NCBI GenBank assembly: GCA_049472395.1
Contig: JBLIRR010000001.1
Location: 197,940 to 261,939 of the forward strand
Direction: 5' to 3'
Source of the DNA: a bacterium
Lineage (GTDB): Bacteria; SZUA-182; DTGQ01; JBLIRR01
Length of the DNA: 64,000 nucleotides
Shown: positions 743-61,279 of the stretch, piece after piece
Layout: each line of letters begins with the position of its first letter
Numbering within the stretch: position 1 is the first letter of the stretch
Program-made: the position numbers and the translations under genes
The notes under the pieces: generated by a model
Told to the model about the DNA's origin: nothing
Seen by the model: only the letters and a program-made list of their open reading frames with translations
Database searches by the model: none

Positions 743-821
743 AATAAAAAATACCGACGTGAGCATTGATTTTTTTTTAAAAAAATTTATACTATATAAT
801 ATGTTCAAATAGAAGAAAAAA

Positions 822-1239: not shown

Positions 1240-1425
1240 TAAGAATCCCTGCCGTGTTCGTGATGGAGAGTTTAGTTTGATCCAACAGTATATTATGAGG
1301 GAGTCTGTGTTTGGGTATAACAAACAGGTCTAGAAAGGTAGAAAGTTTAGACTATCCAGCAGGACACCCACCTGGAAACAGGGTTCAAATATACGCTTCA
1401 CACGGCACAGCGCGGGGAACATTAT
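1240..1425 (+). ncRNA. ssrS: 6S RNA (SsrS) candidate
   Basis: About 185-nt non-coding gap between zapA and rny. The 5' segment CCCTGCCGTGTTCGTGA pairs with the 3' segment TCACACGGCACAGCGCGGGG to form a closing stem. The 3' part contains GGAAACAGGGTTCAAAT, resembling the E. coli 6S 3' region (AAGGGUUCAAGGGUU). Confidence 0.55.
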
Positions 1426-1526
1426 ATATATTAGTGTATTAGTTGTCTCATCACTATTTTCAATTCATTGCAATCAGCCATTTCCTATTAATAATTAAAG
1501 CTATTTAGTAATTAAAGGGGATGAGC

Positions 1527-19685: not shown

Positions 19686-20605
19686 TGGACGCACACTCTC
19701 TACATAAAGTAAAAGAACGTATCATAGAATTAAAAAAAGAGTGTAATATTGCTATCTTAGCCCATAACTACCAGCTCCCTGATATTCAGGATCTGGCTGA
19801 TTACAGAGGGGACTCACTGGGTCTTAGCAGAATAGCGGCAACCCTCACACACAAAATAATCTGTTTTTGCGGGGTAAGATTTATGGCTGAGAGCGCAGAT
19901 ATATTATGTGAAGATAAACGCGTAATTATTCCTGATCTGGCTGCCGGCTGTCCTTTAGCCGATGATTTTACCATAGAGGAGCTGCGAGAGCTGCGGAAGA
20001 ACAACCCTCGGGCAGCTGTTGTATGTTATGTCAATTCATCGGCTGAGGTAAAGGCTGAAAGTGATATATGTTGTACATCCGCAAATGCAGTTGACATAGT
20101 CAATAGCCTTACCCAGTATGATGAGATTATTTTTATTCCTGATCGCAATCTTGGTTCGTATGTAAGCCTTCATACGGATAAAAAAGTTATTCTTTCTTCA
20201 ATCACCTGTCCGGTGCATAATAATCTGACCAAAGAGGAGCTTCTGAATGAAATGGCGATGCATCCTGAGGCAGAGTTTATTGCGCACCCCGAGTGTAGTC
20301 CCGATGTCCTTGCATATGCTCATTTTATCTCATCCACGAGCGGCATGGCAGGATATATTAAAAAATCAAAGGCTCAAAGCTTTATTATCGGAACAGAGAG
20401 AGGAATGATCTATTCTTTACAAAAGGAATTTCCAGAGCGCTCTTTCTATTTTCCCGGAAAATTATTGTGCAATGATATGAAAGTTATCACTATAGAAAAA
20501 TTAGAAAAATGCCTTAAGACCTTGCAGCCAGTAATCAAAATTTCTGATCATCTCAAGATGGCTGCCAGGCGCGCTCTTTCGGCTATGATGGAGGTACATG
20601 ACTAG
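19685..20605 (+). CDS. nadA: quinolinate synthase
   Basis: Typical NadA three-fold repeat with conserved Cys ligands (ILAHNYQ, PDLAAGCP). Confidence 0.85.
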   Translation: MDAHSLHKVKERIIELKKECNIAILAHNYQLPDIQDLADYRGDSLGLSRIAATLTHKIICFCGVRFMAESADILCEDKRVIIPDLAAGCPLADDFTIEELRELRKNNPRAAVVCYVNSSAEVKAESDICCTSANAVDIVNSLTQYDEIIFIPDRNLGSYVSLHTDKKVILSSITCPVHNNLTKEELLNEMAMHPEAEFIAHPECSPDVLAYAHFISSTSGMAGYIKKSKAQSFIIGTERGMIYSLQKEFPERSFYFPGKLLCNDMKVITIEKLEKCLKTLQPVIKISDHLKMAARRALSAMMEVHD

Positions 20606-23293
20606 ATGAGGGGAGATGAAATAAGAAATAAATTTCTCACCTATTTTCACAATAAAAAGCATACTATTCTGCCAAGCTCTTCCTTACTGCCTGCCAATGA
20701 TCCTACACTCCTTTTTACAAATGCAGGGATGGTACAATTTAAGGATATATTTACAGGTCTGATAAAGCGAGAATATCCAAGAGTCACTACGTGCCAACGA
20801 TGTATTCGCGCGGGTGGGAAACACAATGATCTTGAAAATGTCGGCTATACGGCACGACATCATACATTTTTTGAAATGCTGGGCAACTTTTCCTTTGGAG
20901 ATTATTTTAAGAAGGAGGCTATTGCCTTTGCCTGGGAGTTTCTCACCGAGTGCATGAATCTTCCTAAAAAGGATCTATGGATCACCATCTATAAAGATGA
21001 TGATGAGGCAGCCACCTTATGGGCGGATGTTGCGCGTGTACAAAAAGAGAGAATTGTCCGCTTGGGAGAAAAAGATAACTTCTGGGCAATGGGTGATGTG
21101 GGGCCTTGTGGACCATGCTCCGAGATAATTATAGACCAAGGGCCGACGTTCAGTTGTGGAAAGCCTGACTGCCGTGTTGGCTGCAACTGTGACCGTTATC
21201 TTGAACTGTGGAATTTAGTATTTATGCAGTATGAACGGCATAGTGACGGTAAGATCACCCCTCTGCCACGGCCAAGTATTGACACAGGGATGGGATTGGA
21301 GCGAATTACCGCCACAGTTCAGGGTGTCCCGACAAACTATGATACGGACCTGTTTAGTGATATTATCCATTATCTTGAAAAGATAACGGGGAAATCCTAT
21401 AACAGCCAGAGGGATTTTGATGTGTTCTTTCGCGTTATTAGCGATCATATTCGAGCAATAACCTTTTTGATCTCTGATGGAGTAATGCCGTTAAATGAAG
21501 GGCCCGGATATGTGCTACGGCGCATAATCAGAAGGGCAGCACGATGCGGCAAGCAACTCGGCCTCGACAAACCCTTTCTCCATGAGATCGTCCCGACTAT
21601 GATAAAAAGCATGAAAGATGCCTATCCTGAAATTGCTGATCAATCTGCATATATATCGAGTATTACAAAATTAGAAGAAGAACGCTTTCATACCACATTA
21701 ACACGTGGATTGGATATATTGCACGAAGCTATTGAAAAATCACAAAAGGTCGGGAAAAATATAATTTCCGGCAAGGAAATTTTCCGACTCTATGATACCT
21801 TTGGTTTTCCTGTGGATCTTGCCCAAGATATACTCCGTGATTATGGAATGCATTTTGATGAGGGTGAATTTTCCGCAATAATGAATGAGCAAAAAAGGCG
21901 AGCCAGGGAGCATTGGAAAGGTTCAGGAGAAAAAAGTATTAAAGGAATATATAAAGAGATCCTCTCACACATTAAAAACACATCATTTATAGGATATCCG
22001 GATCAGTTGAGAAAAGAGGGGATTCCCTGCTCACGGGTAATGGCTATTATACAAGGCGAGGAGAAAAAAGACAAAGCCGAGGCAGGGGATACAGTGGAGA
22101 TAATTCTTGATCAAACCCCTTTTTATGGTGAAAAGGGAGGACAAGTGGGAGATAGAGGCACGCTCTCCGCCACAGGAGAAAATCCTTTCTACGGCATTAT
22201 TATGGACACTCAATCACCCTTGCCTGAATTGATTATCCATCATCTTCGGATCGAGAGGGGAAGCCTCCATGTTGGCATGCAGGTTAAAGGACATCTTGAT
22301 CAGACACGGCGTACCAATATCACATCCAATCATACTGCAACCCATCTTCTCCATGCTGCTTTAAGAGAAGTGCTTGGAGAACAAGTAAAGCAGTCCGGAT
22401 CTGTGGTAGCACCTGATAGGCTTCGTTTTGATTTTAGCCATTTCGCGCCCCTAAGCCTCAAGCAAAGAGATGAAGTGGAACGAATTGTCAATGAAAAAAT
22501 TCGGGAAAACCTATGCGTTGATACAAAAATTATGGGCTTTGAAGAAGCACTCTCAACAGGAGCAATGGCACTGTTTGAAGAAAAATATGGGGCAACGGTA
22601 AGACTCATATCTATAGGGGATTTTAGCAAAGAACTCTGCGGGGGAACCCATACTCACTCTACCGGCACCATCGGCATATTTTTAATCACAAGCGAAAGCG
22701 CTATTGCGGCAGGAGTAAGAAGAATCGAGGCATTAACAGGTGAAGGAGCACTACACTATATAAAAAGCTTACGGGAGGAGAGAAAAAAGATAAGTGCCTC
22801 TCTTAAATCATCTGAGGCGGAGATAGTGCAACGAATTGAAAAAATGTGCGGGGAGTTTAAAGAGTATGTCCGACAAAACGAGGAATTACACAGACAGGTT
22901 GCTCATCTTCAATCAACTGATATTATCAATAGACATAGAAAAGAAATTAAGGGAAAAGGGATTAGCTATATTACTTATCATCTAAAAAAATCAAGTATTG
23001 ATTTTAACGGATTCAGACAAATGGCTGATACTTTTCTCGATAAAATGGGAAATAAAAGTATCGTTATTTTGGGTACGGAAATCCAGAATAAAGCCGCTCT
23101 TCTTGTGAAGGTAAGCAGGGATATAAGCACACACATACCTGCTTCAGAAATTATTAAACAACTTGCGAGTATCCTCAAAGGAAAGGGCGGCGGCAGGACA
23201 GACATGGCACAAGCCGGGGGAAACTACCCCGAATTAATAGACAAGGCACTTGATGCAAGCCATAAAATATTAACTCAATTATTCATTACCTAA
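20606..23293 (+). CDS. alaS: alanine--tRNA ligase
   Basis: Class II aaRS motifs (FTNAGM, RCIRAGGKHNDLENVG), the editing-domain HxxxH...CGGTH motif and a C-terminal DHHA1 region. 895 aa. Confidence 0.9.
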   Translation: MRGDEIRNKFLTYFHNKKHTILPSSSLLPANDPTLLFTNAGMVQFKDIFTGLIKREYPRVTTCQRCIRAGGKHNDLENVGYTARHHTFFEMLGNFSFGDYFKKEAIAFAWEFLTECMNLPKKDLWITIYKDDDEAATLWADVARVQKERIVRLGEKDNFWAMGDVGPCGPCSEIIIDQGPTFSCGKPDCRVGCNCDRYLELWNLVFMQYERHSDGKITPLPRPSIDTGMGLERITATVQGVPTNYDTDLFSDIIHYLEKITGKSYNSQRDFDVFFRVISDHIRAITFLISDGVMPLNEGPGYVLRRIIRRAARCGKQLGLDKPFLHEIVPTMIKSMKDAYPEIADQSAYISSITKLEEERFHTTLTRGLDILHEAIEKSQKVGKNIISGKEIFRLYDTFGFPVDLAQDILRDYGMHFDEGEFSAIMNEQKRRAREHWKGSGEKSIKGIYKEILSHIKNTSFIGYPDQLRKEGIPCSRVMAIIQGEEKKDKAEAGDTVEIILDQTPFYGEKGGQVGDRGTLSATGENPFYGIIMDTQSPLPELIIHHLRIERGSLHVGMQVKGHLDQTRRTNITSNHTATHLLHAALREVLGEQVKQSGSVVAPDRLRFDFSHFAPLSLKQRDEVERIVNEKIRENLCVDTKIMGFEEALSTGAMALFEEKYGATVRLISIGDFSKELCGGTHTHSTGTIGIFLITSESAIAAGVRRIEALTGEGALHYIKSLREERKKISASLKSSEAEIVQRIEKMCGEFKEYVRQNEELHRQVAHLQSTDIINRHRKEIKGKGISYITYHLKKSSIDFNGFRQMADTFLDKMGNKSIVILGTEIQNKAALLVKVSRDISTHIPASEIIKQLASILKGKGGGRTDMAQAGGNYPELIDKALDASHKILTQLFIT

Positions 23294-26583: not shown

Positions 26584-26844
26584 ATGATTGAAGTTACAGT
26601 GTGCGTTGGCAGTTCATGCCATGTAAAAGGTTCTCGTGATTTGATTAAGTTGTTTAATAATCTTATTAGCGAATATAAACTTGAAGAGAAAGTGGCACTG
26701 AGGGGGTCCTTCTGTCTTGAACATTGCGCAGAGGGTTTTAATTGGAAAATCGGTGAAGAAATCATAAGCTGCAAGAATATCAAGGAGGCGGAAAAAATCT
26801 TTCGGGAAAAAATCATAGAACCTCTCATGGGAAAAGAAGAATGA
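26584..26844 (+). CDS. thioredoxin-like [2Fe-2S] ferredoxin (small hydrogenase-associated type)
   Basis: 86 aa with CxxxxSxC...C...C spacing (CVGSSCHVKG...CLEHC) as in NuoE/HndA-type 2Fe-2S folds. Confidence 0.55.
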   Translation: MIEVTVCVGSSCHVKGSRDLIKLFNNLISEYKLEEKVALRGSFCLEHCAEGFNWKIGEEIISCKNIKEAEKIFREKIIEPLMGKEE

Positions 26845-28511
26845 CCTTGCTCACTATCTCCCATCCTGACTGCAAAGATAAAGATTATTATAAGTGTTTA
26901 CGTTCGTGCCCTCTAAAAGCCATAAAAATTAGCAAGGGCACAATGGAAATAGTGGAAGAGCGTTGTATTGCTGAAGGACTCTGTATTAATATCTGCCCTC
27001 AAGGCGCCATCCATGCCATTGGTGAACTGCATAAGGTAAAAAAATATCTGGATTCCGGTATCCGAGTTATCGCTAGTTTGTCACCGACCACTTTACTCAC
27101 TTTTAGTGATGCTCAAAGGTTCGAGGATGCCCTTAAAACCCTCGGTTTTTCGGAAGTAGTATATATGCAGGATGCCGCGGCTTCACTGGTTTTGGAATAT
27201 GGTCAATTATTATCCAAGGTAAGAAAGCCCCTCATTTCCTCCCATTGTCCGGCTATTTGTGAGCTTGTGGAAAGATTTGTCCCAAATGCCTTGAATTATC
27301 TTGCGCCCATTATTGACCCTGCAGTTGCTCATGCTCGTATTATCAAAGCACAACAAGGAGAGGACAGCCGCGTTGTTTACATAGGGCCCTGTCTTTCTCA
27401 GAGAACCAGAGAAGGAGATGCCCTGGATGCCGTATTAACATTGAATGAAATGGATAACTGGTTTAAGGAAACTGATATTCAGATCCCCATTATGACCTCT
27501 CAGGATATACTACCAGCAGAGTCCTTTGCAGGACTTCTTTCTGTTTCCGGAGGTCTGTTGTCACTCTTGGAGCTTAAAGAGGCAGCAGCTGGAGGAAACA
27601 GTATTTGTATTTCAGGAATGGAAGAGTGTTTGAAATTTCTGAAAAATTTGCCTCCTCCTGAAATGGGCTTTGAATTTGCAGAGCTTATGGCGTGCCATGG
27701 CGGGTGTATCGGCGGCCCTTTTCTTCGAACGAAATTTGATATAGTGAGTAGGAAATTTTTATTATCTCGTAATAAGCCTTCTCGTATCCCCGCACCAGTA
27801 TCACAGGTGAACCTTACGAGAAAACCTCAAGCCAGGCCCTTTGTAGCCCCAAAGACTAATCCGGAAGAAATAGATTATGTTCTGCGCCACTATACGAGCC
27901 ACCTTGATTGCGGAATGTGTGGTTATGAAACGTGCTTTCAGAAGGCAAAAGCAGTATGCGAAGGAATGGCTGACGTTGAGATATGTATGCCAATGATTCG
28001 AACGCAAGGACAAGAGACGCTCTCAATTTTGGAGTATACACCTAACGGAGTCATCCTCATTGACACGGATACTCGGATACGCTTTGCCAATCCATCATTT
28101 TTAAAAATGTTTAAATGTGAACGAAAAGATATACTCGGTGAGCCAATAGCCAACTTCATCCACTCCCATTGTTTTGAAGAGGCTATAAACAATAATATAA
28201 GCTCTCTTTTTAAAAGAACAATTCCTAAACTGGGCATTAGCTACCGCGCGTGTATTTTCCCAATAAAAGGAGCCTCTCTTTACTGCGGGATCATAAACGA
28301 TATATCGGAAGAAGAAAATGCGAGGCGAGAATTCGACAAAGTCAAGGATGAGACCTTAAACAGGGCTCAAGAGGTTATTGGACGTCAAATGAAAACAGCA
28401 CAGGAGATTGCCGGGCTACTAGGGGAGACAACTGCTGAAACGAAAGTTTTACTTGTAAAACTAATGAACCTCTTTAATGAGGAGGAATCTCCAGGTGAAG
28501 CTCTTTTATGA
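26841..28511 (+). CDS. [FeFe]-hydrogenase-like sensory protein with PAS domain (HydS/HfsB-like, group C)
   Basis: N-terminal ferredoxin-like Cys motifs. H-cluster-like motifs SSHCPAICE (L1), IGPCLSQRTRE (L2) and ELMACHGGCIGGPF (L3). An extra CGMCGYETC...C cluster and a C-terminal PAS-like region follow. The start overlaps the previous stop (ATGA). Confidence 0.7.
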   Translation: MTLLTISHPDCKDKDYYKCLRSCPLKAIKISKGTMEIVEERCIAEGLCINICPQGAIHAIGELHKVKKYLDSGIRVIASLSPTTLLTFSDAQRFEDALKTLGFSEVVYMQDAAASLVLEYGQLLSKVRKPLISSHCPAICELVERFVPNALNYLAPIIDPAVAHARIIKAQQGEDSRVVYIGPCLSQRTREGDALDAVLTLNEMDNWFKETDIQIPIMTSQDILPAESFAGLLSVSGGLLSLLELKEAAAGGNSICISGMEECLKFLKNLPPPEMGFEFAELMACHGGCIGGPFLRTKFDIVSRKFLLSRNKPSRIPAPVSQVNLTRKPQARPFVAPKTNPEEIDYVLRHYTSHLDCGMCGYETCFQKAKAVCEGMADVEICMPMIRTQGQETLSILEYTPNGVILIDTDTRIRFANPSFLKMFKCERKDILGEPIANFIHSHCFEEAINNNISSLFKRTIPKLGISYRACIFPIKGASLYCGIINDISEEENARREFDKVKDETLNRAQEVIGRQMKTAQEIAGLLGETTAETKVLLVKLMNLFNEEESPGEALL

Positions 28512-29640
28512 GTGCGCCCATGGCCAAATACCTAAGTTACATGAAGAATTGTGTGGCGACAGTATAGCATTTTCTTTTCAGCCCGATAAAGTGATTATGG
28601 TTCTTTCCGATGGTCTAGGAAGCGGCGTTAAGGCTAATATTCTCGCAACACTGACGACGCGCATGCTTACCCATATGTTAGATAATGAATTGCCTTTAAA
28701 CGAGGTTGTAAAAACAGTGACTGAAACCCTGCCTGTGTGCAAAATACGTGGGCTTGCATATAGCACCTTTTCAGTTGCCCAGCTTTTCTCCAACGGAGAA
28801 GGCCGGTTAGTAGAGTTTGATAATCCATCAGTTTTTTATTTTAAAAACAAAAATCTTGAAAAATTGAGTTGGAAATCCACTACCATATCAGAAAAAAATA
28901 TTAAGGCATGCTCCCTAAAATTACAAGCCGGTGATTGGCTCATTTTCGTGTCTGATGGAGTAATAAGTGCGGGCATAGGCGGTCTTTATTCCTTAGGATG
29001 GGGGTGGGAGAAGGTTGCCCAATACCTGCATAATCATCTCGTCGATACGACATCAGCTCAGAAAATTGTAGATACTGTATTAGAAGCGGTAAGCAACCTC
29101 TATGTAGGTCCTCCTGGGGATGATGTCACCGTGGCCGTGGTTAAGGTGCGCTCTAAACGATACTTGACAATATTATTCGGCCCTCCGCTTAATTCTAAAG
29201 CTGATCCCATTGTGGTAGAAGAGCTGATGAAATCCCCCGGCTGCCGGGTAGTCTGTGGAGGCACTACCGCAAATATTGTATCCCGATTTTTAGGTAAGCC
29301 GCTGCACGTGGACCTTCAGACAATCACAGATGAAGTGCCGCCTCTGGGGCATATGGAAGGCCTCGATCTTGTGACCGAGGGCGTTTTGACCATGACTCAT
29401 CTTGTCTCAATGCTCAAAAATGGGGTCTCTGCAGATTCAAAGGAATTTTCAATAGATAGCTCAAGTACCTTGCTGAGGATGTTGACAGAGGCGGACAGCA
29501 TCAGATTGCTTGTGGGACAAGCAAAAAATCCAGCGCATCAAGATCCGAAACTCCCGGTAGAAATTAAAACAGAGCTTGCCAGGGAACTTCAGGATGCTTT
29601 AAAAAAAATGAATAAGGAATGTTCCATAGATTTCTTTTAA
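28477..29640 (+). CDS. PP2C/SpoIIE-family serine/threonine phosphatase
   Basis: CGDSIAF...VLSDGLGSGVKA and downstream DG...D motifs of PPM phosphatases. A GTG at 28495 preceded by GAGGAGG may be the true start. It overlaps the HydS-like stop. Confidence 0.7.
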   Translation: MRRNLQVKLFYECAHGQIPKLHEELCGDSIAFSFQPDKVIMVLSDGLGSGVKANILATLTTRMLTHMLDNELPLNEVVKTVTETLPVCKIRGLAYSTFSVAQLFSNGEGRLVEFDNPSVFYFKNKNLEKLSWKSTTISEKNIKACSLKLQAGDWLIFVSDGVISAGIGGLYSLGWGWEKVAQYLHNHLVDTTSAQKIVDTVLEAVSNLYVGPPGDDVTVAVVKVRSKRYLTILFGPPLNSKADPIVVEELMKSPGCRVVCGGTTANIVSRFLGKPLHVDLQTITDEVPPLGHMEGLDLVTEGVLTMTHLVSMLKNGVSADSKEFSIDSSSTLLRMLTEADSIRLLVGQAKNPAHQDPKLPVEIKTELARELQDALKKMNKECSIDFF

Positions 29641-36189: not shown

Positions 36190-36669
36190 TTATTTCCAGA
36201 TATAATTTAAAAGCTCTGCAAACTTATCATTCATATCGCGGAGCAAAGAACTCATGGTAAGGGCCACCTTTTTCATGATTTTATACCCGCAAAGGGGATT
36301 GTCCTCAACCAGTTTGTCAAACTTCTCCCGCTCTATCACTATTAATTTCGTTGGATTAATAACCTCAGCTGTTGCAGAATGGCTCCTTCTGTCAAAAAAA
36401 GAAAGCTCCCCAAAAAAATCTTCCTTTTCCAATAAGGCGAGGGTTTGTCGCTCTCCGTTTGAGAGAATCCGGCTGATTCTTACTTTGCCATTATAGATGA
36501 TAAAGAACTTATCCCCCTGCTCATGTTCTTTAAAGATTATTGTCCCCGCTTCATACTCTTTTAATTCTGAAATTGAGGCAATCTGAGATAATTCTTCATC
36601 AAAGAAATTATAAAAAAATGTTAATTGCCGCAATATATCTTTTTCCATTTTTTTGTTATTCTCCTTCAT
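36190..36669 (-). CDS. standalone cyclic-nucleotide-binding (cNMP/CAP-family) domain protein with no DNA-binding domain
   Basis: IIFKEHEQGDKFFIIYNGKVRI...FFGELSFF matches the CAP-type cNMP-binding fold. At 159 aa it has no HTH. It overlaps the fdhA stop by 14 nt. Confidence 0.65.
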   Translation of the reverse strand: MKENNKKMEKDILRQLTFFYNFFDEELSQIASISELKEYEAGTIIFKEHEQGDKFFIIYNGKVRISRILSNGERQTLALLEKEDFFGELSFFDRRSHSATAEVINPTKLIVIEREKFDKLVEDNPLCGYKIMKKVALTMSSLLRDMNDKFAELLNYIWK

Positions 36670-39322
36670 TAATTTTTTCTATATTTATAGCGCACACTTT
36701 ATATTCAGGGATCTTGGATACAGGATCTCGTGCGGAATTGGTTAAAAGATTTGCCGCTGCTTCATGGAAATGGAAGGGAATAAAAACCACCCCACGCGCA
36801 ACCCGAGGAGAAACTTTCGCTTTGAGCGTTATCTGTCCCCTGCGGGAGACTGCCTTCACCATCTGCCCATTTTGTATATCCAAAGAGGACGCATCATAAT
36901 CAGAAATCTCCATATAGGGCTCGCCACAGATTTCATCCAGTCCGGATTTACGCGTCATAGTTCCTGTATGGAAATGAAACAACATTCTCCCTGTGGTTAA
37001 AATAAAAGGATAGGATGCATCTCTTTCTTCTGCCGACGGTATATACTCAACAGGTATAATATTCTTTTTGCCCGCTGTATGGAGAATCGGCACTCCCGGA
37101 TCATTTTCACTTGTGCAGGGCCATTGCAGTCCGCCCTTCTCCAAGCGGTCATAACTTATGCCGGCATAAATCGGTGTCACTGAAGCGATTTCTTTCATAA
37201 TCTGGGAGGGGTGGGAATAGTCCATAGGATAGCCCATTTCAGTTGAAATATCACAGATTATCTGCCAATCCGGTTTTGCCTGGCCGGGGGAGGGAAGAGC
37301 CTTACGGACTAATTGGACGCGTCTTTCGGTATTGGTAAATGTACCATCCTTCTCAGCATAACTGGCAGCAGGCAATACAATATCTGCACGCTGGGCTGTT
37401 TCGGTTAAAAATATATCCTGCACCACAAAAAATTCCAATTTCTTGAGTATTTTCTCAAGATGCCCAATATCAGGATCTGAAAGCATGGGATTCTCTCCCA
37501 TAATAAAAAGGGCCTTGATCTCACCCCGGTCTATTGCCTCCATCATCTCCATAACCGTGAGCCCTGGTTTTGTTGAAAGAGTGCTTTTCCACGCATTTTG
37601 GAATTTTTGTGCCACTTCTATATCGCTCACCGCCTGATAACCCGGATATACATTCGGGAGGCAGCCCATATCGCAGGCTCCCTGAACATTATTTTGGCCA
37701 CGAAGCGGATTAACACCACTTCCCGGTTTTCCGAGATTCCCTGTTATTAAAGCAAGATCCGCCACGGCTTTCACATTATCCGTCCCTGTTATATGCTGTG
37801 TAATGCCCATTGTATAAAATATGGCAGCAGATTCTGCCTGAGCATACATTCGTGCTGCCTCACGTATCTGATTAGCCGGAACCCCTGTAGTGGATTCAAC
37901 ATAGTCTGGCGTATATTTTTTTAATGTTTCCTTAAGCTCCTTAAAACCCGTGGTGCGTTCCTTAATAAATTTTTTATCTTCCAAGCCTTCCTCGACAATC
38001 ACATGCATTATACCATTAAGCATCGCCACGTCTGTTCCGGGAATCTGACGAAGATAAATAGTTGCCCATCTGGCCAGATCTATTCTTCGAGGGTCGACTA
38101 TTATAAGCTTCGCGCCCTTTTTCCTTACGGCCTCCTTTATCTTAAGCCCGATTATCGGATGTGCCTCTGTCGTATTAGAACCAATAACAAGGATTACGTT
38201 CGCATCGACAATATCGGCAATGGAATTTGTCATTGCTCCGCTCCCCAATGTTGCGACCAGACCGGCCACTGTCGGAGCGTGTCAGAGCCGTGCACAATGA
38301 TCGACATTATTTGTGCCGATAACCGCCCTCATCCATTTCTGAAAAAGATAGTTTTCTTCATTGGTACATTTTGCCGAACTTAATCCTGCTATGGCATCTG
38401 CTCCATATTTATCCTTTATCTCGACGAGCCTTTCAGCGATCCTCATATACGCTTCATTCCACTCCATCGGGTCAAATCCCTTATAGGATTTACCAAGAGG
38501 AGTGGTTAGCCGCCTCTTGGAGGAAATAAACTCATACCCGAATCTCCCCTTACTGCAGAGATACCCTTCATTGACTGACTCCTCAGGGGAGGTAATCCGA
38601 ACAATCTCATCATCTTTTAACTGAAGTGCTAATTGGCACCCGCACCCACAATAGGGACACGTCGTTACAACTTCTTTTAATTGCCATGTTCTTCCCTTAT
38701 ATTTGGCAAGCTTCGAAGATAACGCACCCGTTGGGCACACGGCAACACATTGACCGCAAAATTCACAATCAAGAGGCTGATTAAACGCGGTTCCTATCCT
38801 TGTCGTAAAGCCTCTTTCTATAAAATCAATACCGCCTACTCCCTGGACCTCATCACATATACGAACGCATCGTCCGCATAAAATACATTTACCATGATCT
38901 CTCAGTATAAAAGGGTTAGTATCATCTACCGGATACTTATTCCTCTCTCCCTGAAATTTGTAGATATCAACCCTATATTCATAAGCGAGATCCTGAAGCT
39001 CGCATGATCCGCTCTGGTCACAGACAATAGACTCAAAAGAATGATCTGAGAGAATAAGTTCCAAGTTGGTCTTTCGAGCTGCCATTATTCGTTCGGATGT
39101 CGTATGGATTACCATATTTTCAGCTATCGGAGTAGCGCACGCCGGGACCAGCTTTGGAATTCTCTCCACTTCAACAAGACAAATTCTGCATGCTCCAAAA
39201 GGAGCAAGATGGCGATAATGACAGAGCGTTGGAATTCTAATGTTATTTTCCTGACATACCTCAAGAATCGTGGCGCCAAGTTCAGCATATACACGTTTCC
39301 CATCAATGTTTAATGTAATCAT
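36656..39322 (-). CDS. fdhA: formate dehydrogenase catalytic subunit (NuoG-like N-terminal FeS domains plus molybdopterin domain), a selenoprotein with an in-frame UGA at 38282-38284
   Basis: Track ORFs 38282..39322 and 36656..38269 are in the same frame and are separated only by TGA. The local sequence [30 protein letters not shown] is the canonical FDH selenocysteine motif. selB is present in the window. Confidence 0.85.
38230..38281 (-). other. SECIS-like stem-loop immediately 3' of the fdhA UGA codon
   Basis: mRNA CAC-GCUCCG-ACAGUGGCCGGUCUGGUCGCAACAUUGGGGA-CGGAGC. The 6-bp stem GCUCCG/CGGAGC starts 3 nt after UGA, and the apical region contains GGUCUG as in the E. coli fdhF SECIS. Confidence 0.45.
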
Positions 39323-41025: not shown

Positions 41026-41535
41026 TTAGGTTTTATATCTATCAATTATATTTCCCACCTTCTCAGGAGTAAGTTTTCCATAGTAGGTATCATTTATAAG
41101 GGCGACCGGAGCAAGGGCGCAGGTTCCGAGGCACGCTACCGTCTCAAATGCAAATTTCATGTCAGCCGTTGTTTCCCCATCTTTTATTCCTAGCAGCTCC
41201 TCAAAAGCATCGACAACTTCCTTCCCTCCTCTTACATGACATGCTGTCCCGCGACACATTCTTATTATATATTTACCCCTGGGCTCAGTATGAAATTGTG
41301 CATAAAAACTTATCACGCCGTATATTCTGCTTGAAGAAATATCCAGCTTCTCAGAAAGAAAAAACACAACCTCAGGCGGAAGGTATCCGAATATACCCTG
41401 GGCTTTTTGCAAAACCGGTATCAAATTCCCCTCTTTCCCCTTATACTCAGCAACCACGCTTTCCAATGCACTCCGCTTTCCAGATTCTTTTATGGGACTG
41501 TCCGCTCTCTTCACGCCCTTTTTCTCATCCCCCAT
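41026..41535 (-). CDS. NuoE-like [2Fe-2S] subunit
   Basis: CRGTAC...C...CLGTC thioredoxin-like ferredoxin pattern, 169 aa. Confidence 0.8.
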   Translation of the reverse strand: MGDEKKGVKRADSPIKESGKRSALESVVAEYKGKEGNLIPVLQKAQGIFGYLPPEVVFFLSEKLDISSSRIYGVISFYAQFHTEPRGKYIIRMCRGTACHVRGGKEVVDAFEELLGIKDGETTADMKFAFETVACLGTCALAPVALINDTYYGKLTPEKVGNIIDRYKT

Positions 41536-53851: not shown

Positions 53852-56833
53852 TTACAATGTGAGCCCAAAGTAAATACTATAGGATGGATAATCCTCACTA
53901 TTCTCTATTTTTCCTAGCGGGATAGCACCTTTTAAATATACATGACTTAACCGATTCGGCCAATAATAGAAGGAATATCGTAGTGATCCTTCAGCAGATA
54001 TAAGCGTATCTTGGATATCATCATAATGTTTTAAATCACCAACCTCTATCTTAACTCCCGCGCTCATCCTTTCAAACCAGGAAACTTTATTACATACTGA
54101 AATAAAGGGATTAAACCGTAATTCCGCATACGCTCGAAATAATTGCCGCGCATATATGCTCCCATATGAATACCCGCTGAACATCTCTTCATGGCCTAAA
54201 ATTTCATACATAAATAGAGGTCCTTTGTGTGAGCGTATCTTTGTGAAATAAGAGAATCCATCCGTACCAAATCGCAGTGACATCCTCCTGTCAAAGAACA
54301 CTGCATTTTTCCCTAGGCCAAAATGTATTTTGGGCACACTACATGGCTTATAAAGAAACATGCTTTCTTTATATGACGAAAAACCAGGATATCTATTATT
54401 ATAAAGATCGATACCTGCATTGGCTTTAAAACTTGGTTGACCAAGTGTTCCAGGATCGAATGTGCTTCGCCCTGTATAGTGGAGCCAATCAAAACTCCAA
54501 TGATCACATTTATAGATAATACCATCATTCCTGCTCAGAATGCCGGTACCCGATTCACTATAGACCAGGGTGGGATCTGTGAGGGTATATTTGCTTTTTC
54601 GTGTGCGCCATTCATAACTATATGCAGCAGTAAGAATATCATCTTGGCAAAGATTGTATTGTGCACTTGTCTTCAGCTCCGTACTGTCATACATTTCAGC
54701 AATATACATCTCTATACTATCATTATACATATACACAATTTCATTAAAAAATTTTTGTAAAGAAACCTCTTCTTTTACAGAAAATTTCCAGATATCACAT
54801 TCACCCCACACTGTAGCAGACGGATAGATTTCCGGCACTGTTTTATACCCGAATAATCTGTTTATATTCAGGTTAAGCCCAGATTTAAAATTCCCGGGTG
54901 CATTATCCAAAAAAAATGTTCCGCCGAGAATCAGCTGGTTTTTGCTGTCAACGATTTCATCAGTAAAAGGTCGATATCTTATTTTATTAAAGCCTATAAA
55001 ATATTGGGGCATTGACACCATATTCGATTCGACCTCTCTGCTTTGAGGAGTATCAGCCAAAGCAGCTGTAACTTTCGATCTGGCCTCAACGGGCTTTATC
55101 CTGTCGGAAATAATAATGGGGCGCTCTTTTGAAAAAGGATTATTAAGTTTATATATGGTAAAACAGCCATCCTCATATACTGAACATGTCACAGTGCTCA
55201 TATTATTCTTATTGTCAATGCATGGATATCGCACCCCACCTCCCACATCAGTTATTTTATACCAGGTATTCTCATCTTCCTTCATATTGCACCAGTAAAG
55301 CTGTGGAGTTCCATCGAGAGTACTGACAAATAGAAGTCGGTCTGATCCAGCATATATACAATCAATAATATACGCATCTAAATTCTCCCAGAGGATATCG
55401 AATGAATCCTCTTTTAAAATGCCTGCTTTTACTTTACCCTCAGTTCCAATTGATATTACTGCTGATTGTGGTGTAATTTGTGAGATTTTATACACTCCCT
55501 GGCCATAATCAAATATCTTTAAGGTTTGAGGCGAAGATTTATTGGGATCCTGTAACACAATTTTGGTTTTCCCATTATTATATGACGCATACATAAGGTG
55601 ATTGTCATACACATCAAAGGCTATGCATCGTTTATCAGTTGTTGCCCGCTCAGGCTCGCCATCTTTATTTAATTTGAAAATATCATATCTTACACCACTT
55701 GAGAGTCTGCTGTTAACCCGTTTATTAAACCAAATTGTATTGGTAACAGAATCTTGCGTAAGGACCATGCCAACATCCTCTATTACCTTCTTAATATTCT
55801 TTTTATCCTCAGACATAATCATAAGATCATACCTGTTGTAATCATGCCTCCAATTGGCAATGGTATACATGCCTTCATCAACCGTGGCGACTTCAAAATT
55901 CATGAGCCGCTTTTTTCTCTCAAACAGAGGACTCCCATCTATCAGGTGATCCTTTTGGGGGTATTTGATCTTTAAGGTTTCTCTCCAATCTTCATATATC
56001 TGCTCAATAGTCTTGCCATAATGGGAAATAATCGCCTTCTCAAATCGCTCTTTTCGAATGAGACGACAAAGATCCTTAATGGATTTTTGAGGATAGTTAT
56101 GTACAAGGTAGAGCAGCAAATCAAAACCTTGATTATAGGCAAGCTCGGATTCTCTGGAACTTCCTTCAAAGCGTGCCATTTCATCAATGGTGAGAAGCCT
56201 GTTATGATAAAATGAATCCCTTAACAGCATTTCTCTAAAAGGATCCCGATACTCCGCCTTAAATTCATATGAACCCAATTGTGCGATACCTTCCACAAAC
56301 CATATAGGTAGCGCATTATGCTGATACTCGACAATCGACATCACGTTTTCTCCCTTAGGTTCAGAATAGTTTAACAGGCTGAGAGCAACAAGCATTGAGG
56401 ATTGTAATACTCGAAGAGAATAAATATGGGATAATTCATGAGACACAATTGTCCTGAGCCATTCATTTTCCCCGCGCATAAACATATCCGCTTTCCGGCA
56501 CTCTATGACCACGAGAGAATTATATCTATTTGCGCTTCCATTTATATAATCATTATTATTTTTTATAACGATCGCTATTTTTTTTTCATTAATATCATAT
56601 CCAAAATAATCCGCGAGCGTGTGGGCTGTCTCTTCAGCAATATCTAGGGTCATAAGGGCCAAATCTTTGTTTTTCTCCTTATATGAAATTTTAAAATGGT
56701 CGCTCTCAAGATGCTCCCATGTATTGAAAAGTTTACTACTTGCGACATTCGGTATAAGTGAGCATAGTATCATCCACCACACTATTCTCATTTTGAATGA
56801 TCTTTTTAAGGTAGCAGGCATATTTTTACTCAT
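53852..56833 (-). CDS. large secreted or outer-membrane protein with an N-terminal HExxH region, a beta-propeller-like (TolB/WD40-like) middle and a beta-barrel-like C-terminus (hypothetical)
   Basis: Signal-like N-terminus (RIVWWMILCSLIPNVASS), HELSHIY motif, repeated beta-strand-rich segments and a C-terminus rich in alternating aromatic residues (YSIYFGLTL). Confidence 0.55.
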   Translation of the reverse strand: MSKNMPATLKRSFKMRIVWWMILCSLIPNVASSKLFNTWEHLESDHFKISYKEKNKDLALMTLDIAEETAHTLADYFGYDINEKKIAIVIKNNNDYINGSANRYNSLVVIECRKADMFMRGENEWLRTIVSHELSHIYSLRVLQSSMLVALSLLNYSEPKGENVMSIVEYQHNALPIWFVEGIAQLGSYEFKAEYRDPFREMLLRDSFYHNRLLTIDEMARFEGSSRESELAYNQGFDLLLYLVHNYPQKSIKDLCRLIRKERFEKAIISHYGKTIEQIYEDWRETLKIKYPQKDHLIDGSPLFERKKRLMNFEVATVDEGMYTIANWRHDYNRYDLMIMSEDKKNIKKVIEDVGMVLTQDSVTNTIWFNKRVNSRLSSGVRYDIFKLNKDGEPERATTDKRCIAFDVYDNHLMYASYNNGKTKIVLQDPNKSSPQTLKIFDYGQGVYKISQITPQSAVISIGTEGKVKAGILKEDSFDILWENLDAYIIDCIYAGSDRLLFVSTLDGTPQLYWCNMKEDENTWYKITDVGGGVRYPCIDNKNNMSTVTCSVYEDGCFTIYKLNNPFSKERPIIISDRIKPVEARSKVTAALADTPQSREVESNMVSMPQYFIGFNKIRYRPFTDEIVDSKNQLILGGTFFLDNAPGNFKSGLNLNINRLFGYKTVPEIYPSATVWGECDIWKFSVKEEVSLQKFFNEIVYMYNDSIEMYIAEMYDSTELKTSAQYNLCQDDILTAAYSYEWRTRKSKYTLTDPTLVYSESGTGILSRNDGIIYKCDHWSFDWLHYTGRSTFDPGTLGQPSFKANAGIDLYNNRYPGFSSYKESMFLYKPCSVPKIHFGLGKNAVFFDRRMSLRFGTDGFSYFTKIRSHKGPLFMYEILGHEEMFSGYSYGSIYARQLFRAYAELRFNPFISVCNKVSWFERMSAGVKIEVGDLKHYDDIQDTLISAEGSLRYSFYYWPNRLSHVYLKGAIPLGKIENSEDYPSYSIYFGLTL

Positions 56834-56895
56834 TTTCCTTTTAGATGTTACTATTGGGCTAGATAATAATTATGTGCCATCAGATAATTTAGAAT

Positions 56896-56911
56896 TGCAA
56901 CAACTATACCA
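56896..56911 (-). promoter_or_regulatory. sigma-54 (-24/-12) promoter candidate upstream of the 993-aa protein gene
   Basis: Minus-strand TGGTATAGTTGTTGCA matches TGG-N8-TTGCA (consensus TGGCAC-N5-TTGCA) about 63 nt upstream of the start codon. Confidence 0.45.
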
Positions 56912-57032
56912 TTAATAATATTCTTAGATGCTTTATTTCATTGAGATCAGGGGGCTTCACTCACACCTCATCAGAAATAAGCACTCAGATTGAACATCCT
57001 GCGCTCTTTAGTGATCAAAAGATGAGCTTCTA

Positions 57033-57093
57033 TAAAATAAAAAAAGGTATCAGCCTTACTTAGGGAATGAGAACCCTAAGTAAGCATGATACC
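57033..57093 (-). terminator. strong intrinsic terminator candidate downstream of EF-hand paralog A
   Basis: Minus-strand GGTATCATGCTTACTTAGGG-TTCTCATT-CCCTAAGTAAGGCTGATACC (about 18/20 bp stem) followed by TTTTTTTTATTTTAT. Confidence 0.55.
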
Positions 57094-57119
57094 CTTAATT
57101 TATCAGAGATTTTAACTCT

Positions 57120-58445
57120 CTATAGACTATTAATAAAACACGTATTGTTCTCTGGACCAGATTGTGTCTGAACAGGTTCTATCTGCATTGTATCGGCTGC
57201 ATTGCCTGCTGATGCAGCTTCATTACTACTGTTGCTCTCAAATACAAACTGGTATACGAGGGAATGAGCTCCATCACCCACTGCATCAACCTCAGCGACA
57301 TACACTACTCCATTTGTCCAATCATCAGCATCAGGATCTGCTTTTTGCATATTAATCTTTTCACCCGGATCATCAAAATCAGCTTCGTTCCATGTAATTA
57401 TCCCATCATTATTAAGATCTACAGAGTCATAATTTAAGTCTACCCATAGCTGTGATACTGCCGGTGGTGCATTCGCCTGATCATCAACCGGATACACATA
57501 TCGAACCCTGAAGATGAAATGATTATCTCCCTCATTTATCAACGTAGGATACACAGCTTCCAATTTAAAATCTGCAAATTCACCAGCAGAATTCTCTGCA
57601 CCGTTTAACGCTGACAAATCCAGGGTTTCTCCAGTAAAACTGAGGCTCCCGGTAATCTCAGGATCAGCACCAATATATTGAATATCTAATTGTGGCCTTA
57701 AATTTTTATCATCAACATCTGAGGTATAGTATTCTATATACTCGTCTCCGTCAAAGCTCACTTCCTCTGCTGTTCTTGAACTTATCAGGGTTATTTTGGT
57801 GAATTCCCCAGGTTTAATGATATCATAAGGTCTTACTATTTCAATCACATTTGCCTGACCAACCTCAAACTCACCGGAGCTTATTGCACCATGTTCGGAT
57901 CCGGTAATCGCACCCCATTCAATATTCCAGAGGGGCTCCTCCCAATCCGATTCATAGATCCCGATATTGAATTGACCATCATTATCAATATTCTTTTCTT
58001 TTCCATAAAGAGTCAAGCTGGCAGATGTGACGATCGCATCATAAGGAAGAGATGTGGTATCAAAACTCATATATCCCTTAAAGATGGAAAATGAACCATC
58101 ATAGATCTGCCCTACTTTGGCTGTTTCTGCTGCAACTGTGGTGGTAAAGGTATTACCCTTACTTGAACCACTAACATCAGGCACGCCATCTATTGCTCCA
58201 CGTGCACCTTTTTTACTGCCGCCACTTCCAGCAAACGCCCTGTTCCCACCACCATAAGCACCTGAGCCCTTTATATTTTTATCTCCTGTAGAAAAAGTTC
58301 CAAGTGCAGTACTTTTTGATTTCATTTCCCCTGAGGAAGTGGTTGGACCAAGTGTTATAGATGCTGCATCAGTTATATTTGGCATAATAAAGAACATGCC
58401 TACCATTAAACTTATAATAGCAAAAATACATAAATATCTCTTCAT
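57120..58445 (-). CDS. secreted hypothetical protein with a canonical EF-hand Ca-binding loop (paralog A)
   Basis: Signal peptide MKRYLCIFAIISLMVGMFFIMPNITDA. Gly/Ser-rich N-terminal region. DLNNDGIITWNE fits the 12-residue EF-hand loop. About 60 percent identical to the next gene. Confidence 0.6.
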   Translation of the reverse strand: MKRYLCIFAIISLMVGMFFIMPNITDAASITLGPTTSSGEMKSKSTALGTFSTGDKNIKGSGAYGGGNRAFAGSGGSKKGARGAIDGVPDVSGSSKGNTFTTTVAAETAKVGQIYDGSFSIFKGYMSFDTTSLPYDAIVTSASLTLYGKEKNIDNDGQFNIGIYESDWEEPLWNIEWGAITGSEHGAISSGEFEVGQANVIEIVRPYDIIKPGEFTKITLISSRTAEEVSFDGDEYIEYYTSDVDDKNLRPQLDIQYIGADPEITGSLSFTGETLDLSALNGAENSAGEFADFKLEAVYPTLINEGDNHFIFRVRYVYPVDDQANAPPAVSQLWVDLNYDSVDLNNDGIITWNEADFDDPGEKINMQKADPDADDWTNGVVYVAEVDAVGDGAHSLVYQFVFESNSSNEAASAGNAADTMQIEPVQTQSGPENNTCFINSL

Positions 58446-58725
58446 GAGCCTATTTATACCTCCCTTTGCATCATGGCTTACATCAATAATAAACCTTTAA
58501 TTAAATTAACTTCTTCTCTCAAACATCCGTACTGATATATTGTGAGCATCTTCTTACATAGTGTCTAAATGCTATTCTTTAACCTCTTCCCCATCGCTCT
58601 TCTTGAATAGTGCTTGTTATATATTCTTGATTATCATACCCCCTTCTCTTTAATTTATTGTTTATGATGCGAGACAATCCTGTCTCTTAATTCCCCCCGT
58701 GTGTACTTTGCTTATTTATATATCA

Positions 58726-58741
58726 TGCAAATATCATTCCT
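58726..58741 (-). promoter_or_regulatory. sigma-54 (-24/-12) promoter candidate upstream of paralog A
   Basis: Minus-strand AGGAATGATATTTGCA (AGG-N8-TTGCA), about 282 nt upstream of the start, implying a roughly 270-nt leader. Confidence 0.4.
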
Positions 58742-58800
58742 CTATCCATTTAATGTTTATCTGTTAAGAATAAAGAGTCTGTGACTGAACATATTCTCCT

Positions 58801-60180
58801 CTATTGATTTAAAGTATAATTTTTAGACATCTGTTCATATACACTATTAATAAAACATGTACTACCCTTAGAACCGGCATTTGCTTGAACCGGCGCTATC
58901 TGCATAATTTCAGCAGCATTTCCTACTAACGCGCGCGCTTTAGTGGCGCTGCTATCTTCAAATACAAATTGAAACACCAAAGGATGCACTCCGTCACCCA
59001 CCACTTCAACCTCGGCTTGATAAATTACTCCGTTTGTCCAATCATCAGAATCAGGGTCGGTTTTATACATGTCAATTTTCTCACCACTATCATCGAAATC
59101 AGCTTCATTCGAGTCTATATTGCCATCAGAATTCTCATCCATAGAATCATAATTTAAATCTACCCATACCTGGGAAAGACTTGGGGGCGCATCAGAAAAA
59201 TTATCGAATGGATAAATATATCGCACCCGAAATATTACATGATTATCTCCTTTATTTATGAGAGTAGGATACGCTGCCTCCAATTTAAAATCCGCCATCT
59301 CATCATCTCCAAATTCTTCCGTCTTAGTGAGATCTGCCAATTCTATTGTCTCTCCCGTAAAACTAAGGCTTGGCGCAATAGAAGGATCATCGCCAATCCA
59401 CACAACATCTAACTGCGGACGTAGAGTGGGATTTGCTGCATCTGAGGTATAATACACGATATATTCATCTCCGTTGATGTTCTGGGACTCTTCAACTGTT
59501 CTTGAGCTCACCAAGGTTATTTTGGTAATTTCTCGAGGTTTGATAATATCAAAGGGTCTTGTGATAGTAATCTCATTGGGTTGACCATCAACCTTAAATT
59601 CACTGACACTTATTTGCCCGTGTTCAGATCCGCTTATGGCTCCCCATTCAATATTCCAGAGGGGTTCCTCCCAATTCGATTCATAGACACCGATTCCAAA
59701 TTCAATTTCATTATCATTATGCTTTTCTTTTCCATATATAATCAAGGTCGCTGAGGTAATAATGGCATTGTAAGGAATAGAGGTAGTGTCAAAACTCATA
59801 TAACCCTTGAAGATCGAATACGATCCGTCATACGTTTGACCTACTTTTGCCGTATCTGCTGACACTGTGGTGGTAAAAACATTACCCTTACTGGTACCAT
59901 TTGCACTAATGTCGGGCACACCATCAAGTGCGCCACGCGCTCCGTATTTACTCCCCCCAAAACCTGAATAGGCCCTGCTTCCCCCTCCATAGGCATAACT
60001 GCCTTTTATTTCCTTATTCCCCGTGGAAAAACTCCCTAATAATGAACTTCGTGATTCCATGTACCCAGAGCTTGCGGATGACCTGATTCCCTTAAGAGAC
60101 GCTGCATATATTGTTTGTGGAGTATAAAGGAGTAGTCCTCCTATAACACCTATGAGAGTAAAAATACATAGATATTTCAT
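58801..60180 (-). CDS. secreted hypothetical protein with a canonical EF-hand Ca-binding loop (paralog B)
   Basis: The likely start is ATG at 60178-60180 (MKYLCIFTLIGVIGG...) preceded by GAAGGGGAG; the track ORF begins at a TTG at 60201. DENSDGNIDSNE fits the EF-hand loop. It shares high nucleotide identity with paralog A over long stretches. Confidence 0.6.
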   Translation of the reverse strand: MKYLCIFTLIGVIGGLLLYTPQTIYAASLKGIRSSASSGYMESRSSLLGSFSTGNKEIKGSYAYGGGSRAYSGFGGSKYGARGALDGVPDISANGTSKGNVFTTTVSADTAKVGQTYDGSYSIFKGYMSFDTTSIPYNAIITSATLIIYGKEKHNDNEIEFGIGVYESNWEEPLWNIEWGAISGSEHGQISVSEFKVDGQPNEITITRPFDIIKPREITKITLVSSRTVEESQNINGDEYIVYYTSDAANPTLRPQLDVVWIGDDPSIAPSLSFTGETIELADLTKTEEFGDDEMADFKLEAAYPTLINKGDNHVIFRVRYIYPFDNFSDAPPSLSQVWVDLNYDSMDENSDGNIDSNEADFDDSGEKIDMYKTDPDSDDWTNGVIYQAEVEVVGDGVHPLVFQFVFEDSSATKARALVGNAAEIMQIAPVQANAGSKGSTCFINSVYEQMSKNYTLNQ

Positions 60181-60319
60181 ATAATTTTGTCTCCCCTTCA
60201 AGATATTTATGTGATTAAATACATAGTAGGCTTACTGTATACTCTTATAAATGAATAAAACTCCTCCTTTTTTTATGGATTATTTCCAATTTTCCATGGC
60301 CCGTTTTGATATTAATTAC

Positions 60320-60335
60320 TGCAAATATCATTCCA
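60320..60335 (-). promoter_or_regulatory. sigma-54 (-24/-12) promoter candidate upstream of paralog B
   Basis: Minus-strand TGGAATGATATTTGCA (TGG-N8-TTGCA), about 140 nt upstream of the ATG. The 14 nt GGAATGATATTTGC are identical to the paralog A site. Confidence 0.5.
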
Positions 60336-60481
60336 TATTCTTATCCCCCTCATTTTCTTAGGTTTCTCTGGGAGAATGCTGATGGAGTGATTAATAATTT
60401 TTATAAACTTATAGTGAGCAGTTTAATTTTTACACAAATAGTATTATAATAATTCACGCGAGAATATGACTGAAACCCTGA

Positions 60482-61279
60482 ATGGATATATTTGAAATGC
60501 AGGTACGTTCAATAAAATATAGAATTTTTATTTTTCTCTTCCTCTGTCTTTTTCCGGGCAGAGGCTTTAGTGCGGCACAAACCGCCCAACAATCACTCAC
60601 GGACTACAACCTATGGAATTTATATGGAGGAGCCAGCGATGTATACCTTACGCTCAAAGATGGATCACATAAAAAAACAAAGGTACCCTTAAAGGAATAT
60701 GGCTTTTTATTGGAATTTGAGGATAAATATGACAAATGGAAGGTTGATTTTTCATTTTTCCAATGGAACGATAGTCAACTGCAAGGGGAAGATTTCTCAG
60801 TAAAGCTGAACTATCTTCCATTTAAAACCAAAAAAGGGGGGATCTTTACCCGGCTTAATCCCTATATAGGAGGCTCCCTTAATTACCATTACAACAAAAT
60901 AAATCTTCCTGACGCTAATCCGGAGCCCACTGGTTGGGTTAATCCTTATCAGCAGGCTATAAAAGGATATGGCGCAGGATTGCAGACGGGGATGAAGATT
61001 AAGGATATCCCTTTTAAAGGCACTATATGGCACACAGAACTTGGCGGCATAGTCTATACGTATAAATCCTCCTTACTGGAAGAAGAATTTCTGTCTGGCA
61101 TCTCTTTTACCCTAGATACGCATTTTAAAAAAAGATTTTATTATATTTTCCTTGGATTAGGGTATCAATTGAGACAATCAGATTTTGATGGTACTTATTT
61201 AAGCGATCAAGATAAATATTATCCGAGCTCTCAATTTACCCATCATCTTTTTTATATTAATCTTTCTTATCCGTTTTAG
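60482..61279 (+). CDS. putative outer-membrane beta-barrel protein (hypothetical)
   Basis: N-terminal signal (FIFLFLCLFPGRGFSAAQT), alternating hydrophobic beta-strand patterning and a C-terminal ...YINLSYPF ending in Phe. An alternative start lies at 60497. Confidence 0.45.
   Translation: MDIFEMQVRSIKYRIFIFLFLCLFPGRGFSAAQTAQQSLTDYNLWNLYGGASDVYLTLKDGSHKKTKVPLKEYGFLLEFEDKYDKWKVDFSFFQWNDSQLQGEDFSVKLNYLPFKTKKGGIFTRLNPYIGGSLNYHYNKINLPDANPEPTGWVNPYQQAIKGYGAGLQTGMKIKDIPFKGTIWHTELGGIVYTYKSSLLEEEFLSGISFTLDTHFKKRFYYIFLGLGYQLRQSDFDGTYLSDQDKYYPSSQFTHHLFYINLSYPF

Follow-up and report, generated by a model that had tools for sequence, protein, structure and literature searches.

Three 16-nucleotide motifs on the minus strand of a 64,000-nucleotide stretch of DNA from an uncultured bacterium (GenBank assembly GCA_049472395.1, contig JBLIRR010000001.1, positions 197,940 to 261,939; hereafter the window) are probably sigma-54 (RpoN)-dependent promoters of the -24/-12 class, each serving one adjacent gene for a secreted protein. 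The genes encode two paralogs, A and B, and a protein of 993 amino acids (aa), and the promoters are named P_A, P_B and P_993 after them (Table 1). An earlier interpretation of the stretch, made without database searches (the sequence-only reading), had singled out these 16-mers. When we read the minus strand of 56700-60600 its placement of the motifs proved exact, and its claim on orientation holds as well, all three being intergenic and co-oriented with the downstream 993-aa gene, paralog A and paralog B. The distance between the GG and GC elements is in every case that of the sigma-54 consensus TGGCAC-N5-TTGC (GG-N10-GC, i.e., TGG-N8-TTGC). The sites match 10-11 of the 12 specified positions of the extended consensus TGGCAYR-N4-TTGCW and lack the C after GG. 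P_A and P_B share an identical 15-mer that includes the spacer, while the remaining DNA upstream of paralogs A and B is too diverged for alignment; as judged by this comparison, the shared 15-mer is a conserved island.

The motif recurs at the same places in relatives. Paralog A has 13 homologs in 5.8 billion clustered proteins, and the family as a whole totals ~25 homologs across public data. Three loci share synteny with the window: L001 (JGI), L002 (GCA_049472375.1) and L006 (ENA), the last being a 4-kb contig that holds the A-type and 993-type genes only. L001 and L002 show the order B-like gene, A-like gene, gene for a ~1000-aa Peptidase_MA_2 protein and gene for a ~300-aa protein, followed in L001 by two SPFH genes. 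Exactly one xGG-N8-xTGCx site is found in the upstream 450 nucleotides (nt) of each such gene of the three loci, at distances to the ATG that resemble those of the window (-296 to -331 for the A-type, -78 to -127 for the 993-type and -91 to -229 for the B-type genes). In alignments the motif forms a conserved block amid poorly conserved intergenic DNA, and GG and TGC are invariant in 11 of the 11 promoters of the window, L001, L002 and L006, as they are in all 16 distinct sites of the matrix analysis described below. The promoter identity proposed in the sequence-only reading is thus upheld, with the GG and TGC elements, their spacing, orientation and position kept at orthologous and paralogous genes whose flanks have diverged.

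The same pattern extends to the wider family. On the sense strand, GG-N9-TGC occurs in 21 of 24 family upstream regions, with 27 matches in 11.6 kb, compared with 1-7 of the 24 regions for the control spacings N5-N8 and N10-N13 and 2-7 of 24 for any spacing on the antisense strand. Distant homologs (33-42% identity) were gathered from genome and metagenome scans, and most of them carry sites that lie nearer to the textbook consensus, several being near-canonical TGGCA-N6-TTGCA (Table 1). In one locus, L007, the motif also precedes a subtilase gene and the gene for a beta-sandwich protein. Its presence before unrelated genes, the peptidase gene here and these two in L007, therefore marks it as a promoter class of general use and not as the operator of one family. 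Control by sigma-54 appears to be an ancient trait that the family has conserved.

The three sites were also ranked against the rest of the window with a matrix for which only sites of the relatives, i.e., from other genomes, were used. When both strands were scanned (128,000 positions), P_B came first (19.5 bits), P_A second (18.7 bits) and P_993 third (17.1 bits); the next-best match reached 15.0 bits, and this and all lower matches fall within coding sequence. Intergenic DNA makes up ~9% of the window, and the three sites are its only matches. A first-order Markov simulation of 64 kb yielded 0.33 matches per window with a score of 17 bits or more. Restricted to the three intergenic regions (942 nt, sense strand, 32% GC), the same simulation gave an expectation of 0.004, against three observed. 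Under the relatives-only matrix and the simulation, the signal is far above chance.

The arrangement of terminators and other promoter elements is in keeping with separate control of the 993-aa gene. A long intrinsic terminator follows paralog A, and its hairpin is kept in L001, L002 and L006; an Rfam scan of the region returned a spurious sub-threshold miRNA match on this hairpin as its sole result. The 993-aa gene is a separate unit and needs its own promoter, because this strong and conserved terminator isolates it from upstream transcription. No convincing terminator was found between B and A, and read-through from P_B may therefore also reach paralog A. A scan for the sigma-70 consensus gave nothing at or above 9/12 upstream of B, one non-conserved 9/12 match upstream of A and, before the 993-aa gene, one 9/12 match in overlap with the hairpin of the terminator; the three intergenic regions are without good sigma-70 promoters. 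The sequence-only reading had seen no equivalent -24/-12 site before the neighbouring Gly/Tyr gene, the SPFH genes or a gene resembling those for outer membrane proteins (OMPs), and the scan with the relatives-only matrix agrees. The Gly/Tyr gene has a sigma-70-type TTGAAA-16-TATAAT element at 53719-53692. A promoter of the Bacteroidota -33/-7 type was also considered for the three sites and rejected: TAnnTTTG does not fit them, and the adjoining OMP-like gene has a TATAAT box.

Promoters of the -24/-12 class work by an established mechanism in which the polymerase is held in a closed complex until an ATP-hydrolysing enhancer-binding protein acts on it. At the window's promoters, sigma-54 RNA polymerase would bind the GG and GC elements and stay in the closed complex, an enhancer-binding protein encoded outside the window would remodel this complex at the expense of ATP before transcription, and the three genes would stay silent until a signal switches the activator on. 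That sigma-54 reads the motif is inferred, as are the activator, its signal and the transcription starts. The 'signal-dependent surface programme' of the sequence-only reading can reasonably be inferred from this scheme.

The absence of an enhancer-binding protein from the window, which that reading had reported, was confirmed by a GAFTGA scan and by a Pfam survey that returned no sigma-54 activator match. Apart from one activator in L004, no coding sequence with a GAFTGA motif or an RpoN box is present in the window or in L001-L014. The L004 activator gene (GAF-Sigma54_activat-HTH_8) lies two genes from the family member. The metagenome-assembled genome (MAG) MAG299 (JBFMGO01) contains a family member with a canonical site (L013). 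Another contig of MAG299 encodes a GAFTGA activator with the intergenic sites TGGTATACGGTTTGCT, TGGTACGTGTCTTGCT and TGGTATTTATTTTGCA (TGGTAT/TGGTAC-N5-TTGC) on its flanks. With the L004 activator as the query, no homolog on the window's contig appeared among the best 120 matches. A homolog found in this way is P0233 (MGA1868400.1), a 'sigma 54-interacting transcriptional regulator' in which GAFTGA is present. Paralogs A and B have the accessions MGA1867103 and MGA1867104 (locus tags ACMUJM_01010 and 01015) and the AlaRS of the window is MGA1867076; since AlaRS is exactly 27 earlier, as in the gene order of the window, the accessions run sequentially along the assembly. The accession of P0233 is 1,297 above that of paralog A, which would make it approximately protein 1,500 of the same genome if accessions stay sequential. 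Furthermore, P0233 and the window's proteins are both missing from the gene-position index, which does contain other genomes from this submission batch. Taken together, the order of the accessions and the absence from the index suggest that P0233 probably belongs to the window's genome.

The sequence-only reading had also called for a search for upstream activator sites, and this gave a candidate at one promoter. A block upstream of P_993, a candidate activator site, is kept in four orthologous 993-type regions at -86 to -140 from the promoter and is not shared with P_A or P_B. A search for a shared upstream motif gave a marginal score of 87, compared with 82-85 in shuffled controls, and its signal is confined to orthologs of the 993-aa gene.

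Several observations weigh against sigma-54 control. The sites are non-canonical, with A or T in place of C after GG and, in P_A, A for T before GG, and the -24 element of the window's clade reads (T/A)GG(A/T)AT. A second matrix, trained on 29 intergenic sites that the sigma-54 holoenzyme binds in Salmonella (PMC3844500), gives the three 12.8, 9.7 and 8.3 bits and places them 7th, 11th and 16th in the window, and even the lowest training site (16.1 bits) lies above them all. The low scores arise mainly because A/T replaces C after GG, and the three are still the sole intergenic sites among the top 16. In three of the 24 family upstream regions the -24 element is present in degenerate form only (AAGCAT in L004 and L007, TGAAGT in L015). 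The A and B sites count as one event followed by duplication and are not independent, because they share the identical 15-mer and lie before paralogous genes. No RpoN box is present in the window or L001-L014. The activator adjacency of L004 is not kept elsewhere and may be coincidental, the activators of L018 and L019 lying beside cytochrome, NHL and cohesin genes, and P0233 is tied to the genome without sequence linkage. No activator site shared by the three promoters turned up in their upstream regions. The raw pattern by itself is not enriched in the window: TGG-N8-TTGCA occurs six times against 2.65 expected, a number reached in 6 of 100 shuffles, and the looser GG-N9-TGCA 34 times against 29 expected. 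The argument that three such 16-mers are 'very unlikely by chance' therefore does not stand as it was worded, the raw pattern being unenriched and A and B being duplicates.

Some of these points would fit the view that the 16-mer is the site of another DNA-binding protein, be it a dedicated transcription factor or one of the alternative sigma factors in the sigma-70 family, and that its likeness to a -24/-12 element is coincidental. The A/T at the fourth position, where TGGCAC has C, the low Salmonella-matrix scores and the failure to see rpoN agree with this, as does the spacer ATGATAT, which recurs unchanged in four A/B promoters from two genomes and would be unusual for a pure sigma-54 spacer. 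However, it is precisely GG and TGC, at the exact sigma-54 spacing, that do not vary in this strand-specific and non-palindromic motif, the full TGGCA-N6-TTGCA occurs at distant homologs, the motif precedes unrelated genes and lies beside a GAFTGA activator in other genomes, and no conserved -35/-10 pair accompanies it. We consider this explanation unlikely. It is likewise unlikely that the sites are of the sigma-54 type by descent and no longer work, with transcription coming instead from read-through or from unrecognised AT-rich sigma-70 promoters. The weakened consensus match, the degenerate -24 element of three relatives, the missing B/A terminator, by which A could be read from B, and the many weak -10-like boxes in intergenic DNA of such low GC content are what a relic would lead one to expect, but the invariance of GG and TGC in all 11 promoters despite diverged flanks indicates ongoing selection, and the 993-aa gene sits behind a strong terminator, its sole sigma-70-like match overlapping the hairpin. 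Chance matches in AT-rich intergenic DNA, which the unenriched raw pattern might seem to favour, are effectively refuted by the simulated expectation for the three regions, by the conservation of the same places in other genomes and by the restriction to one spacing and one strand.

Table 1. Predicted promoters, genes and other features of the window, with sites in relatives (L numbers are loci). Distances from promoters to start codons (78, 296 and 155 nt) are measured to the ATG, with the 16-mer's first base as the starting point. UTR, untranslated region.
Feature	Position	Strand	Details
Predicted promoter P_B	60320..60335 (60335-60320)	-	TGGAATGATATTTGCA; -24 GG / -12 GC; 155 nt to paralog B ATG 60180
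Predicted start from P_B	~60309		5' UTR ~129 nt up to ATG 60180
Predicted promoter P_A	58726..58741 (58741-58726)	-	AGGAATGATATTTGCA; 296 nt to paralog A ATG 58445
Predicted start from P_A	~58715		5' UTR ~270 nt up to ATG 58445
Predicted promoter P_993	56896..56911 (56911-56896)	-	TGGTATAGTTGTTGCA; 78 nt to 993-aa gene ATG 56833
Predicted start from P_993	~56885		5' UTR ~52 nt up to ATG 56833; second ATG at 56821
Sites orthologous to P_B	L001 (7969), L002 (4468)		
Sites orthologous to P_A	L001 (9681), L002 (5924), L006 (114)		-296 to -331 from ATG
Sites orthologous to P_993	L001 (11647), L002 (7865), L006 (1977)		aligned
Distant-homolog site	L014		TGGCAATGATTTTGCA
Distant-homolog site	L013		TGGCAGTAATTTTGCA
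Distant-homolog site	L005, L012		TGGCAATCATATTGCA
Distant-homolog site	L003, L016		TGGCCTGGATTTTGCT
Distant-homolog site	L010		TGGCCCGGATTTTGCT
Distant-homolog site	L011		TGGTATTAATTATGCA
Candidate activator site (conserved upstream block)	56981..57030	-	TTCATCTTTTGA ... ATGTTCAATCTGA; 70-120 nt upstream of P_993
Paralog B	58801..60180	-	459 aa, secreted; DNRLRE (CBM96-like); NF033679 36.7 bits vs cut-off 34
Paralog A	57120..58445	-	441 aa, secreted; DNRLRE (CBM96-like); 33.6 bits, just under cut-off 34
Intrinsic terminator after paralog A	57034..57096	-	long hairpin, then T-run; -36.2 kcal/mol, z -7.6
993-aa gene	53852..56833	-	secreted; Peptidase_MA_2; weak beta-propeller (DUF5050) match
OMP-like gene, divergent	60482..61279	+	265 aa; TATAAT box 60445-60450 (+); no -24/-12 site

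The products of the three genes under predicted sigma-54 control are exported and probably polysaccharide-directed proteins. Paralogs A and B, the latter starting at ATG 60180 as in the NCBI annotation, have signal peptides, and the DNRLRE domain family includes the alginate-binding module CBM96 (PMC9971899). The AlphaFold model of paralog A is poor (mean predicted local distance difference test score, pLDDT, 58.7), and its best domain is a beta-sandwich that matches the chondroitin-sulfate-binding structure 8wab and the alginate-binding structure 7vbo; the link to polysaccharides is suggested by the weak domain match together with this low-confidence model. The 993-aa protein resembles metallopeptidases of the MA clan, and its orthologs are 1009 and 996 aa long and have the same position in L001 and L002. 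All family members share a conserved Cys-Phe-Ile near the C-terminus (e.g., ..NTCFINSL; encoded at 57120-57140 in A and 58801-58830 in B), and no transmembrane helix follows it in these proteins. The motif may be a sorting, anchoring or modification signal.

The divergent OMP-like gene looks like a conserved partner of the family. Its product has no Pfam or NCBIfam match and ends in ..YPF, and homologs are found beside a family member in six other loci (L001, L002, L003, L004, L007 and L010). In L002, the window's closest NCBI relative, the genes just beyond the OMP-like one (371-2972, minus strand) encode a CZB-HAMP-PAS histidine kinase and a response regulator with two receiver domains; the regulator is not a sigma-54 activator, and the pair may play a part in signalling to the locus. 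The predicted 5' UTR of paralog A (58446-58715) contains a hairpin at 58671-58686, formed by GAGACA..TGTCTC in the window and retained in L002. Its counterpart in L001 has a different sequence that is also able to pair (GGTGG..CCACC), and the hairpin has no Rfam match. Short upstream open reading frames following a Shine-Dalgarno-like AAGGGGG are found in the same UTR.

Mapped sigma-54 promoters of Salmonella and Escherichia coli follow the consensus TGGCACG-N4-TTGCW, as in hypA (TGGCATAAATATTGCTTT) and pspG (TGGCATGATTTTTGTAAG) (PMC3844500). The window's sites are similar in their identical GG/GC spacing, in the T-rich run before GC and in the A/T after it, and like them are intergenic, in sense orientation and 50-300 nt before the start codon, with no -35/-10 pair and with the activator expected elsewhere. 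Unlike the Salmonella sites, they are without C after GG, have A before GG in P_A and score under all the training sites. Variants without this C can be recognised, because the Salmonella sigma-54 holoenzyme binds a TGGAAC-type site, e.g., at ftsQ (TGGAACGCGTCTTGCAGG) (PMC3844500). A further difference from Salmonella and E. coli lies in the host, a deep-branching uncultured anaerobe whose sigma factor itself was not seen. PEP-CTERM/exosortase systems also comprise secreted proteins with a C-terminal motif, are linked to polysaccharides and depend on a sigma-54-dependent regulator, PrsR (NCBIfam TIGR02915). What the window has in common with them is regulatory logic and not membership: in contrast to PEP-CTERM proteins, its family has neither the PEP motif nor a C-terminal transmembrane helix, and the window contains no exosortase and no PrsK/PrsR. 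Sigma-54 has conserved associations with exopolysaccharide, surface and biofilm functions (PMC3162934), and the window resembles the control of the cell exterior described by Francke et al. 2011 (PMC3162934) in that its regulated genes encode exported proteins and have an OMP-like gene alongside. The DNRLRE/CBM96-like Cys-Phe-Ile family is not among the associations found in that text.

Wood-Ljungdahl genes in the window identify the host as an anaerobe, and the OMP-like neighbour gene suggests a diderm envelope. Both sigma-54 and its activator proteins are almost universal in diderm bacteria of the lipopolysaccharide type, where they are tied to control of the cell exterior (PMC3162934). No other database protein is more than 66% identical to the AlaRS, and those of Nitrospirota, KSB3 and Nitrospinota are ~52% identical to it. 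The gene order homoserine dehydrogenase, NadA, AlaRS is common to the window (18369-23293) and L021 (1-4624), a locus of the JBLIRT genome, which also carries the family member of L014; accessions put the window's genome in the same NCBI batch as the genomes with JBLIR accessions. The gene for the formate dehydrogenase alpha subunit (36656-39322, minus strand) is interrupted by an in-frame TGA at 38282-38284 (minus strand) within HCARL-U-HAPTVAG, and SelB is encoded at 4631-6568 (plus strand). Because both are present, the sequence indicates a selenocysteine-containing formate dehydrogenase beside the Wood-Ljungdahl genes. At 41149-41164 (minus strand), TGACATGAAATTTGCA lies inside a 169-aa open reading frame, 134 nt upstream of the start of a NuoF-like gene at 41013. 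With GA in place of GG, it scores 13.9 bits with the relatives-only matrix and ranks second with the Salmonella matrix, and it may be an internal sigma-54-like site of the formate dehydrogenase/hydrogenase cluster or a chance match. At 26841-29640 (plus strand) lie genes for a PAS-domain protein resembling Fe-hydrogenase and, next, for a SpoIIE-type phosphatase; the two look like a hydrogen- or redox-sensing regulatory pair.

The window presents a known promoter class in a new organism and before a new gene family, and no new mechanism is revealed. As a tentative proposal that goes beyond the individual promoters, these may be part of a sigma-54 regulon for a previously undescribed surface module, composed of CBM96-like Cys-Phe-Ile proteins, a small OMP and a large MA-clan peptidase, in which -24/-12 control is kept across several uncultured, deeply separated lineages and the consensus of the window's own clade has shifted to (T/A)GG(A/T)AT-N5-TTGCA without the canonical C. 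Phylogenetic footprinting of the kind used here can call sigma-54 promoters reliably in unclassified MAGs, even when they depart from the enterobacterial consensus. The deep conservation of sigma-54 control over a secreted family, combined with a lineage-specific shift of the -24 element, is what sets the finding apart. If the assignment is correct, expression of the three genes would be all-or-none and would depend on an activator that senses a signal. The promoters would then provide a regulatory handle on a family of secreted and probably polysaccharide-binding proteins, small and uncharacterised, in an uncultured acetogen-like bacterium.

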